12,981 nucleotides of DNA from Candidatus Thorarchaeota archaeon (GTDB taxonomy: Archaea; Asgardarchaeota; Thorarchaeia; Thorarchaeales; Thorarchaeaceae): positions 19,963-32,943 of the forward strand of contig JBHLQM010000002.1 in the NCBI GenBank assembly GCA_048884785.1. Direction: 5' to 3'. A program made the position numbers and the translations under genes. Shown one piece after another: positions 6,178 through 9,345 of the stretch. Every line of letters starts with the position of its first letter. Position 1 is the stretch's first letter. The notes below the pieces were generated by a model that saw only the letters and a list, made by a program, of their open reading frames with translations, did not search any database and had not been told where the DNA came from.

Positions 6178-6642
6178 TCATTTGACCTCTAGCAAGAAGA
6201 TCGATGCATCTGCATGCGGATAGAAATTGGCTATGCTAGCTTTTTCCTCAAATCCAATACTCTCATAGAATTGTCTGGCTGTCTTATTTTCTGACTCCAT
6301 GAATAGAAATACCCTGCGAAGAATCTCGCCTTTTTCAGCGAAAACTGATTTTGCATGAGCTATTGCGTCTTTGACAAGGACGGATGCAAATCCTCTTCTT
6401 CTATATTCTTCGTTGACTCCGAGTCCTATTATCTCAACAACGCCATCATCCCAGCCGCCTCTTCTATCCCATGAGATAGTACCGCAGATTTTCTGGTCCT
6501 CAAGACAGAGGATAGTGTTCAAATGCTTGACTAAATCGTAGGCAAATTGCTCAGCGTGTTCCTTGTTTGGCTCGACTTCACTCAGGAACATTTCTTCTAT
6601 GAGAATAATATCATCTTCAGTTGCTTTTCTGAAAATAGGCAT
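6178..6642 (-). CDS. GNAT family N-acetyltransferase (RimI-like)
   Basis: Acetyl-CoA motif A 'LGVNEEYRRRGFAS' and motif B 'NKTARQFYESIGF'. Confidence 0.92.
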   Translation of the reverse strand: MPIFRKATEDDIILIEEMFLSEVEPNKEHAEQFAYDLVKHLNTILCLEDQKICGTISWDRRGGWDDGVVEIIGLGVNEEYRRRGFASVLVKDAIAHAKSVFAEKGEILRRVFLFMESENKTARQFYESIGFEEKASIANFYPHADASIFLLEVK

Positions 6643-6761: not shown

Positions 6762-7538
6762 TCATTCGATGATTAGTACTGCATCGGCAAAGAGCTCGTA
6801 ATCTTCATCCTCATCGAGATTACGGATTAGTACCTTCTCTACGTCTTCTTCTCCTCTAATCTCAAGCAGTCGCGATTGATAGAGAATTTTTATTGAGGAG
6901 TTTTGGAGTTCATTCATTAGTTCTTCAGTTGTGACTATCTCTCTCTCTGGTGTCAAGAGTATGACTCTGTCGGTGACATCTGTGAGTTCTAATGCTGCAT
7001 CTATTGATTCATCGCCCGTGTGCAACACAAGAGTCCGTTTCTCCCTGAAGTCCTCAGGATTCATCGTCGAAAGGTATACACCTCGATCAAGATATTCATC
7101 TTGGCCTACCACACATGCCGCTTCTTCCGTACTCGACTCCTCATCTTCGGTGAGCTCTCCACGACCTTTGCGATAATTCTTGACAGCATCATGCAAGGCA
7201 TCTGCGGCAAGATTCGAGCAGTGCATCTTGATCGGGGGTAATCCATCAAGTTCGTCTGCAACATCTTGTCGCGTCAGCTTCATCGCATCTTCAAGGTTCA
7301 TTCCAATGACCATTTCAGTGGTCATGCTTGTCGTCGCTATGGCTGAACCACATCCGAATGTTCGGAATTTCGCGTCGGTTATTTTGTCATCTTTAATTCT
7401 GATATACATCTCCATGATGTCACCGCAGGTGGGATTGCCCACTCTTCCGTATGCAACATCATCGCCCTCAAGAGTGCCCACATTTCTTGGGTTCCTGAAG
7501 TGGTCTAGTACTTTCTCGCTATACTTTGTGCTCTTCAT
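6762..7538 (-). CDS. iscU: Fe-S cluster scaffold IscU/NifU-N fused to a degenerate thioredoxin-reductase-like NAD(P)H-binding domain
   Basis: aa 1-122: YSEKVLDHFRNPRNVG, NPTC38GD40, FGC63GSAIA, LPPIKMH106C107. An acidic linker follows, then aa 143-258 align by eye with the TrxR middle domain. Confidence 0.93.
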   Translation of the reverse strand: MKSTKYSEKVLDHFRNPRNVGTLEGDDVAYGRVGNPTCGDIMEMYIRIKDDKITDAKFRTFGCGSAIATTSMTTEMVIGMNLEDAMKLTRQDVADELDGLPPIKMHCSNLAADALHDAVKNYRKGRGELTEDEESSTEEAACVVGQDEYLDRGVYLSTMNPEDFREKRTLVLHTGDESIDAALELTDVTDRVILLTPEREIVTTEELMNELQNSSIKILYQSRLLEIRGEEDVEKVLIRNLDEDEDYELFADAVLIIE

Positions 7539-7540
7539 TA

Positions 7541-8716
7541 TTACGCCCCCTTTCTGGGTGAATATATTGGTGATAGTTCCCTGAGCCGTTCAACAATTCC
7601 AGGAATCTCCGCAATGACTGCATCGATGTCCTCATCAGTGTTGAATCGTCCCGTTGTAATCTGAAGTGAACCATGAGCTTCCTCGTGAAGCAGTCCGGTC
7701 GCAATCAGTGTATGTGATGGTTCAAGAGTCTTAGATGTGCAGGCAGATCCAGTAGAGATTGCAATATTCTTGTCTTTAAATGAGAGGAGAATTGATTCAC
7801 CCTCAATCCCATCGAATCTAACATGTGTGTTGCTTGGTAGACGTTCGGTTCTATGTCCATTTAGATGGCTATCAGCCACGTTGTCAAGGATTTCCCGTAT
7901 TAGCTTGTCACGCCACGCCGTGAATTTCCTCATTTCTTCAGGCATTTCTCTCATCATGATTTCAGCCGCAGTTGCCATACCCACTATTGAAGCCACATCT
8001 TCCGTTCCCGACCGCAAACCTCTCTCCTGTCCCCCACCCAGAAGCATTGGATTGACTCGAAACTTCTTCTGCATATAAAGGACGCCAAGGCCTCTCGGAC
8101 CATAGATGTCGTTTGAAGATAATGTCATCAGGTTGATATTGTCACGCTTCACATCGATAGAAACGAGACCTTCAGCGGCCACGGCATCGGTATGAAACGC
8201 AATGTCTCTCTCGCCCAATATTTTGCCTATCTCATGTATTGGCTGAACTGTACCAATCTCATTACTCGCATATCCAATTGATACCAATATAGTATCATCG
8301 CGAATTCTACTCTCAAGTTTGCTTAGCCTCACTCTTCCATATTGGTCGACAGGTACCTTTGAGACCTCGAATCCGTTTTGCGTGAGGTATTTCGCCAAGT
8401 TGTGGATAGAGATATGGTCCACTTCTGAAATGATGATATGTTTTCCCTTGCCCTTATTTTTCATAGCATAACCAATTAACGCGAGATTACTAGCCTCTGT
8501 GGCTCCCGAGGTGAAGACAATTTCATCCGGGTCCGCATTGATGAATTGTGCGATCTTCTTTCTGCTCTGTTCTAACGCGTCAGTAGCAATGTCTCCCACT
8601 TTGTGAAGAGAAGAAGCATTCCCGAACTTCTCATGGAAGAACGGTATCATTGCATCTACGACCCGCTGATCAACGGGCTTTGCAGATTGATAGTCTAGGT
8701 AGATTTGCTTCTCCAA
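7541..8716 (-). CDS. iscS: Group I cysteine desulfurase-like protein (IscS/NifS), variant lacking the PLP lysine
   Basis: YLDY, FGNASSLH, FTSGATE, NEIGT, GGGQERGLRSGT and STGSACTS motifs are present. The PLP motif reads SSNDIYGP rather than SxHKxYGP. Likely start is TTG 8716 after SD GAGGGTGA; the ORF track gives 8737. Confidence 0.93.
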   Translation of the reverse strand: MEKQIYLDYQSAKPVDQRVVDAMIPFFHEKFGNASSLHKVGDIATDALEQSRKKIAQFINADPDEIVFTSGATEASNLALIGYAMKNKGKGKHIIISEVDHISIHNLAKYLTQNGFEVSKVPVDQYGRVRLSKLESRIRDDTILVSIGYASNEIGTVQPIHEIGKILGERDIAFHTDAVAAEGLVSIDVKRDNINLMTLSSNDIYGPRGLGVLYMQKKFRVNPMLLGGGQERGLRSGTEDVASIVGMATAAEIMMREMPEEMRKFTAWRDKLIREILDNVADSHLNGHRTERLPSNTHVRFDGIEGESILLSFKDKNIAISTGSACTSKTLEPSHTLIATGLLHEEAHGSLQITTGRFNTDEDIDAVIAEIPGIVERLRELSPIYSPRKGA

Positions 8717-8727
8717 TAATCTCACCC

Positions 8728-9081
8728 TCAGAACCACATTGTGGTATCTGCTTCTAGGGCTAGGTCATTCAATGTTGCTGCGCCCACTATTTTGAAGTCT
8801 GGATCGAGTTCTACCTTGTCCCACCCCAGCATTTGCTTGGACGCCTCGCAAACGTAAACTGGGATTCCCATTTCTACGGTCTTTTTTAGCATCTGCGCAA
8901 CACTTGGGAAGTTCCCAATCTTGATTTTCTCTGCTTCCCCTGCCTTGAGAATCCTTAGACCTTGTCCTAAGTAATACACCTTTGCTTCAATATCCATGGC
9001 CTTGGCACTCTGGGCAAGGACCAAAGGTGAATACTGTCGTTCAGGATCATCACTTGTCTGAACATATAGAATCGAACTCAT
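8728..9081 (-). CDS. DsrE/TusD-family sulfur relay protein
   Basis: 117 aa with the DsrE pattern 'AKVYYLGQGLRIL...GIPVYVC78EAS...GAATLNDLALEADTTMWF' and a single Cys. SD GGAGTGA is upstream. Confidence 0.88.
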   Translation of the reverse strand: MSSILYVQTSDDPERQYSPLVLAQSAKAMDIEAKVYYLGQGLRILKAGEAEKIKIGNFPSVAQMLKKTVEMGIPVYVCEASKQMLGWDKVELDPDFKIVGAATLNDLALEADTTMWF

Positions 9082-9090
9082 TTCTATCTT

Positions 9091-9345
9091 TCACTCCTTT
9101 CTTTTTATTAGAAATCTTTGAACGCCGTCCTGCCTTTTCTCATAGCTGATGATTTCGTGACCCGTCCGCTTGGCGAATCTCTTTATGTCCTCCTCAGCAG
9201 CAGGGTCATCTGCTAGGAGTTCAAGGACCTGACCAGGAGCAAGCTTATCCATTGCTTCTCTGGTTTGGAAAAGTGGCTGTGGGCAATATAGACCTACACA
9301 GTCAAGCGTTTCATCGGGCATTTCTTTCATCTCCGGCTCATCCAA
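9091..9345 (-). CDS. tusA: TusA/SirA-family sulfurtransferase (persulfide carrier)
   Basis: 'LDCVGLYCPQP' (CPxP motif) and 'GQVLELLADDPAAEEDI'. The real start is probably ATG 9330 or 9321 rather than TTG 9345. Confidence 0.93.
   Translation of the reverse strand: MDEPEMKEMPDETLDCVGLYCPQPLFQTREAMDKLAPGQVLELLADDPAAEEDIKRFAKRTGHEIISYEKRQDGVQRFLIKRKE

Follow-up and report, generated by a model that had tools for sequence, protein, structure and literature searches.

A predicted catalytically dead IscS linked to TusA and DsrE-like genes in Asgard archaea

The third gene of a minus-strand operon in the window (the whole stretch of 12,981 nucleotides analyzed here) encodes, judging by its sequence, a protein of a known type, i.e., a catalytically dead IscS/NifS (MisS) that is an orthologue in kind of Archaeoglobus fulgidus IscS2. 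Overall, we think it quite probable that this dead family member works with an IscU partner and depends on sulfur supplied from outside. Lys-less archaeal IscS is itself not new (the Lys-to-Asp form has reportedly been known since 2012-2015); the apparently new element is the linkage to tusA and dsrE. No connection of TusA or DsrE to an archaeal IscS-IscU pair was found in the literature searched, and an earlier mention elsewhere is possible.

An Asp-type iscS as the third of four tightly packed genes

The four genes follow each other on the minus strand in the order tusA, dsrE-like, iscS and iscU:

About 9400-9385: AT-rich TATA-like stretch upstream of tusA
9091-9345, minus strand: tusA, about 80-84 aa, CPxP active-site Cys21 (TGC 9285-9283)
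8728-9081, minus strand: dsrE-like sulfur-carrier gene, 117 aa, single Cys78 (TGC 8850-8848)
7541-8716, minus strand: iscS/misS, Asp-type, 391 aa from TTG 8716
6762-7538, minus strand: iscU, 258 aa, starting 2 nt past the iscS stop

The iscS frame is open without a stop, and its 391-aa translation contains YQSAKP, HTDAVAA, SSNDIYGP, STGSAC and HGSLQIT. Of the extent proposed in an earlier, sequence-only reading of this DNA, the unbroken frame stands and the start at TTG 8716 is less sure, with GTG 8725 (the 394-aa form on record, P0002) and GTG 8737 also possible; the choice of start codon has no effect on the other iscS results.

Residues were numbered on E. coli IscS and IscU, taken from NC_000913. 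Aligned to E. coli IscS, the window protein (hereafter, Asp-type IscS) has K206 replaced by D, H205 by N, Q183 by A, R354 by Q and T13 by K, and it retains C328, H104, D180 and T76. The residue at the PLP Schiff-base position is Asp203 (GAC 8110-8108 by positional read-out), which aligns with E. coli K206 and A. fulgidus D199, and the SND motif falls under the AHK of the canonical solved desulfurase 9wer in a HMMER alignment. The Lys-to-Asp replacement claimed by the sequence-only reading is thus confirmed, as are the coordinated changes that it described as DAVA, SAKP and SLQIT, which correspond to Q183A, T13K and R354Q. SAKP needs a narrower reading: the motif, present in the window protein, characterizes the Asgard subclade and A. 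fulgidus and does not extend to the Asp clade as a whole. The STGSAC cysteine is intact as proposed, with the mobile-loop Cys326 (TGC 7741-7739) aligning with E. coli C328. At the four positions that mark an active group I desulfurase (Schiff-base Lys, H205, Q183 and R354) the protein therefore carries D, N, A and Q, while the pocket residues H104, D180, T76, S203, T243 and N35 (E. coli numbering) are kept.

The NifU_N domain of the downstream IscU (residues 5-124) retains C38, D40, C63, H106 and C107, which align with E. coli IscU C37, D39, C63, H105 and C106. Residues 141-258, at its C-terminus, form a degenerate NAD(P)H domain of the thioredoxin-reductase type that has neither CxxC nor a Gly-rich loop. 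In one Asgard lineage (G038) IscU is fused to a full-length CxxC-less TrxR-like flavoprotein (448 aa, Pyr_redox_2 143-431; L128:4903-6249, plus strand), and because of this full-length fusion the short C-terminal domain of the window IscU (6762-7160) looks like a remnant of a TrxR-like fusion. In another genome (G058), the IscU gene beside an Asp-type iscS is split by an intein with a LAGLIDADG homing-endonuclease domain (L136:4174-5757, plus strand; 528 aa in total). A GNAT acetyltransferase gene (6178-6642, minus strand) lies beyond a 119-nt gap after the window iscU.

Family assignment and annotation

Asp-type IscS matches Pfam Aminotran_5 (PF00266, E = 2e-72). Among solved structures it is closest to A. 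fulgidus IscS2 (4eb5/4eb7/4hvk; E = 1.9e-135), in which the SSNDIYGP and SAKP motifs are identical; 4r5f is the D199K mutant of the same protein. The AlphaFold model (pLDDT 86) is closest to the 4eb5/4hvk chains (TM 0.91-0.95); pLDDT is low in the Cys loop (325-331), which is usual for a mobile loop. Motif, E value and fold agree with the earlier claim that the Lys-to-Asp change is the one seen in A. fulgidus IscS, and they support membership in a pseudo-enzyme clade, a label that rests on homology to the A. fulgidus protein.

The protein falls below the NCBIfam equivalog cut-offs of both NifS (TIGR03402, 464.1 vs 530.75) and IscS (TIGR02006, 406.4 vs 643.2), and the subfamily model NF002806 is the only NCBIfam model passed, narrowly (308.7 vs 304). 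Source databases nonetheless label the nearest homologues 'cysteine desulfurase (family protein)', bearing out the prediction that automatic annotation would name it as an active desulfurase. These homologues carry Thor-, Odin-, Sif-, Hermod-, Hod- and Promethearchaeota names, in agreement with the Asgard origin that had been guessed from the DNA.

Conservation and selection

The altered motifs are fixed among close relatives: (S/A)SND and HGSL(Q/E)x(T/S) occur in 120/120 nearest homologues (70-82% identity) and STGSAC in 119/120. Both Asp codons are used among 64 fetched loci (GAT 33, GAC 31), as are both Cys codons (TGT 36, TGC 27; n = 64). Comparison of the Asp-type iscS with its closest relative gives a dN of 0.12 and a saturated dS, so that dN/dS is far below 1. 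A total of 249 of 301 Asgard genomes have a match to Asp-type IscS at E ≤ 1e-60, the weaker of which may include Lys-type paralogues, and all 50 best Asgard loci examined have SND and the Cys. The use of both Asp codons, the low dN with saturated dS and the wide presence in Asgard genomes show that the gene is under purifying selection.

Residues lost and kept in the Asp clade

We compared 27 Asp-clade with 126 Lys-type sequences, drawn from 1.8 billion cluster representatives and the fetched loci. The fixed differences between the two sets are Q183A, H205N and K206D only. At the R354 position the Asp clade (n = 27) has Q, L, E, V or M. H104, D180, T76, N35 and C328 are conserved in 27/27 sequences, and S203 and R240 in 26/27; position 243 is Thr or Ser. 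By this comparison, the residues of PLP chemistry are lost selectively and the remaining pocket is retained, which agrees with the non-covalent PMP of A. fulgidus IscS. Given such a largely conserved cofactor pocket, some ligand is probably still bound. A Lys three residues after the loop Cys (Cys+3) is found in 85% of the Asp clade vs 10% of Lys-type sequences; no other Lys is enriched in the clade, and this one is shared by A. fulgidus IscS.

Likely repeated loss of the lysine

Trees were built after deleting the trait columns, and the A. fulgidus sequence was not among the rows. FastTree (165 rows) recovered a 28-row Lys-less clade (SH 88) made up of Asgard, Bathyarchaeia and Methanomethyliaceae proteins together with Ser, Ala or Pro variants at position 206. 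IQ-TREE (LG+C20, 72 rows) recovered a 23-row core clade (SH-aLRT 89), with the deeper branching left open. In both trees the window IscS groups with other Asp-type proteins; a tree of SSND-type proteins had been suggested as a check in the sequence-only reading. Because parsimony requires 8-9 changes of the Lys state, and the starred branches force at least 2 (IQ-TREE) to 5 (FastTree), the Lys was likely lost repeatedly on these trees, with the Cys kept in nearly all cases. Such repeated loss with Cys retention suggests that the role of IscS as a scaffold partner can be selected independently of its enzymatic role.

Variant states were also seen. The Lys is replaced by Ser in Odinarchaeum LCB_4 (P0127) and by Ala or Pro in other cluster representatives (P0130 and P0132 are also variants). 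One protein (P0134) keeps His-Lys and has Q183A and R354L; it is a possible intermediate.

Linkage of tusA and dsrE to Asp-type iscS

Gene neighborhoods were counted at loci with at least 700 bp of upstream DNA, including a scan of one genome per species from which 80 loci were retained, A. fulgidus not among them. The gene directly upstream is tusA in:

Asp-type loci, one genome per species scan: 13/13
Asp-type loci, Thorarchaeota: 25/25
Asp-type loci, other Asgard families: 15/19
Lys-type loci: 0/61

For Asp-type loci as a whole, tusA is directly upstream in 53/57 and a dsrE-like gene is upstream in 41/57, counts that overstate independence because the compared genomes are related. Four of the 19 Asp-type loci of other Asgard families have no tusA nearby, and dsrE is absent in about one quarter of the loci. 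Among the homologues adjoining Asp-type iscS, the CPxP Cys is present in 57/57 TusA proteins and the single Cys of the DsrE-like protein is invariant (44/44). In a separate lineage with a Lys-to-Leu change, i.e., the second IscS paralogue of another Asgard family, tusA lies right after iscU in 3/3 loci. This lineage and the Actinomycetes cassette described below add some independence to the tusA linkage.

A tusA-dsrE-iscS(Asp)-iscU-fusion cassette was also found on Actinomycetes contigs (PHEU01000025, CAVPLM010000008 and CAVOYK010000003) with 64-67% GC and approximately 60-64% identity. These contigs, which also carry MMPL and Tap-type transporter genes, are real Actinomycetes. Because the Actinomycetes IscS nests within the Asgard clade (99% support), the sequences point to a likely interdomain transfer of the four-gene cassette to Actinomycetes. 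One further locus (L028), labelled Spirochaetota and with a GC content of 35%, forms a pair with an Asgard sequence, and its binning may be wrong.

Other desulfurase and Fe-S assembly genes

The assembly of the window genome is 91% complete. A second IscS-like gene lies on contig C17 (L002:1375-2589, minus strand), followed by the gene for a 122-aa IscU (L002:776-1144, minus strand). Its product reads DAHHIHGP, with K206H, H104T, N155A and S203D; Q183, R354 and the Cys are retained. At the K206 position, orthologues from Thorarchaeota carry H, L, R or V, and those from other Asgard families Lys. The gene preceding this second IscS-like gene encodes a 173-aa protein that has C-terminal cysteines and matches no family. 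As the C17 gene is the sole other IscS-like gene found in the genome and has His, a second Lys-containing IscS was not found there. A SufS-family gene with SAHKMCGP is present on contig C49, with a 100-N scaffold gap within its 3' part. The suggestion to look for a second Lys-containing IscS or SufS thus returned the latter and not the former.

A SufS-like gene with the Lys occurs in 26/26 genomes of the Thorarchaeota family and in 82 of the 151 Asgard genomes searched. In Asgard family f13 it stands in line with tusA-dsrE-iscS(Asp). At two loci of one Asgard family (L133 and L134, from genomes G023 and G012) tusA, dsrE and iscS(Asp) are followed by a 121-aa gene that matches no family and then by a SufS-like gene with the Lys (SIHKMCGP); no iscU was seen in the fetched stretch of these two. 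Where the SufS-like gene is absent, family f12 has a distant SufS and family f16 a Lys-type IscS. A search of five genomes from two Asgard families for a lineage devoid of any Lys-bearing desulfurase gave none; these genomes encode either a Lys-type IscS or a distant SufS bearing GHHC.

For the SufB/SufD core (PF01458), the window genome yielded only a 70-residue C-terminal fragment in a 95-103-aa frame (C62:15948-16157, L203). SufB was not found in three other genomes of the same genus (92-95% complete); at family level, 19 of the 30 members searched have it. With no intact SufB detected and the Lys missing from both IscS-like proteins, the Asp-type cassette may be a main Fe-S assembly route in the genus of the window.

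Function and sulfur supply

A. fulgidus IscS has no desulfurase activity, owing to its Lys-to-Asp change, and one of its Cys residues ligates the IscU-bound [2Fe-2S] cluster (PMC7585200, PMC8918507), both as stated in the sequence-only reading. It binds PMP non-covalently, and its D199K variant still holds PMP; Methanosarcina acetivorans IscS1 is also without the Lys (PMC7585200, PMC8918507). We infer from this homologue, about 50% identical, that the window protein would likewise have no desulfurase activity, and by analogy with the A. fulgidus structures it would form the complex with IscU and ligate the cluster through its Cys. The window protein has lost precisely what PLP chemistry on cysteine requires (H205, Q183, the Lys of the Schiff base and R354, which binds the carboxylate), and it keeps the dimeric class-V fold, most of the cofactor pocket and the mobile-loop Cys. 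An (IscS-IscU)2 complex would most likely form with the IscU encoded 2 nt downstream, in which Cys326 could act as the fourth ligand of the nascent [2Fe-2S], as the hand-over point of a persulfide, or as both.

Two other explanations of the missing Lys carry little weight. The chance that the Asp codon reflects an assembly error, a pseudogene or recent decay is negligible: the frame is unbroken, identical changes occur in all homologues examined, the Asp is encoded by GAT as well as GAC, and dN/dS lies far below 1. Taken together, these data rule out error and decay, upholding the earlier judgement that the gene is not decaying. It is also very improbable that the protein is still an enzyme, using non-covalent PLP/PMP or a substitute Lys (Lys329 at Cys+3, or Lys13 of SAKP) and acting on cysteine by desulfuration or on another thiol or amine substrate. 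The invariance of the rest of the cofactor pocket, the enrichment of the Cys+3 Lys in the Asp clade (85% vs 10% of Lys-type) and the binding of PMP/PLP by A. fulgidus IscS speak for such residual activity; however, A. fulgidus IscS shares both SAKP and the Cys+3 Lys but has no desulfurase activity, and PMP is retained even in its D199K variant. Q183 and the Arg that binds the carboxylate are lost as well, and position 206 may be Ser, Ala or Pro in the clade. Judged by alignment, a substitute Lys is unlikely because A. fulgidus IscS carries the same Cys+3 Lys and is inactive.

With a dead IscS as the preferred reading, the sulfur has to come from outside, since Asp-type IscS would be unable to make its own persulfide. 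Gene linkage suggests the TusA and DsrE-like carriers of the same operon as the most likely route, one we favor over any other single source while holding it tentatively; a shared gene neighborhood says nothing of which way the sulfur moves. The carriers encoded upstream would deliver sulfane sulfur to Cys326 or to IscU, and could themselves be loaded by the Lys-containing SufS-type enzyme of the genome or from environmental reduced sulfur. The main alternative is free sulfide. On that account, which we consider rather unlikely, a dead scaffold partner uses environmental or metabolic sulfide, and co-transcription of the two carrier genes serves some other end, e.g., tRNA thiolation, molybdenum cofactor synthesis or sulfane-sulfur buffering. 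Asgard archaea live in sulfidic sediments, a habitat that favors it, and some Asp-type loci are without tusA or dsrE. Sulfide is also the source proposed for A. fulgidus IscS-IscU in a 2022 review, which treats the question as open (PMC8918507). The tie of tusA to Asp-type (53/57) and not Lys-type (0/61) loci is, however, hard to explain with unrelated pathways, and the cassette moves as a unit.

Returning to delivery by the carriers, the fuller proposal, held with a little more reserve than the route itself, is that Asp-type IscS is a receiving station through which sulfur may enter ISC-type assembly independently of PLP, passing from a TusA/DsrE-like persulfide to the loop Cys and on to IscU. 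The cassette that would do so is conserved across Asgard, Bathyarchaeia and Methanomethylicia and was, in this proposal, transferred to Actinomycetes. The tusA-dsrE linkage thereby offers a concrete testable hypothesis for the open question of the A. fulgidus IscS-IscU sulfur source (PMC8918507). Metabolic reconstructions of Asgard and other archaea list Asp-type IscS as active, which probably overstates the use of cysteine as a sulfur source.

Comparison with known systems

The closest known system is A. fulgidus IscS2 (AF0564; 4EB5, 4EB7 and 4HVK; D199K 4R5F) with its IscU. The window protein shares with it the fold, SSNDIYGP, SAKP, the loop Cys, the Cys+3 Lys, the absence of Q183 and R354 equivalents and an adjacent IscU, and the two are approximately 50% identical in a Foldseek structural alignment. 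The degenerate reductase-type domain of the window IscU sets the pair apart from A. fulgidus IscS-IscU. The window iscS follows tusA and dsrE; the comparison with A. fulgidus IscS2 is at the protein level.

E. coli IscS, known also in complex with IscU and with TusA (1P3W, 3LVL and 3LVJ), is 44% identical and has the same fold, the loop Cys C328 and the same types of partner (IscU and TusA). Unlike the window protein, in which these four residues are replaced, it is an active PLP enzyme with K206, H205, Q183 and R354. In E. coli, sulfur goes from IscS to TusA; given the four replaced catalytic residues, any sulfur flow between TusA and IscS in the window system would run in the opposite direction.

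The minimal iron-sulfur (MIS) system (MisS-MisU) of anaerobic archaea is an IscS-like/IscU-like pair of two genes that comes with neither chaperones nor carriers; the window has such a pair, and Lys-less members, including M. acetivorans IscS1, are acknowledged in that system (PMC7585200, PMC13066941). The published MIS system has no TusA or DsrE, whereas here these are conserved upstream partners. In this the window operon resembles the TusA-DsrE relays (TusA-TusBCD, Rhd-TusA-DsrE2/DsrEFH-DsrC and DsrE3-TusA), with a CPxP-Cys TusA beside a DsrE-fold protein that has a Cys78-type cysteine. The known TusA-DsrE relays feed tRNA thiolation or dissimilatory sulfur oxidation; in the literature searched, none was found that supplies an IscS-IscU scaffold.
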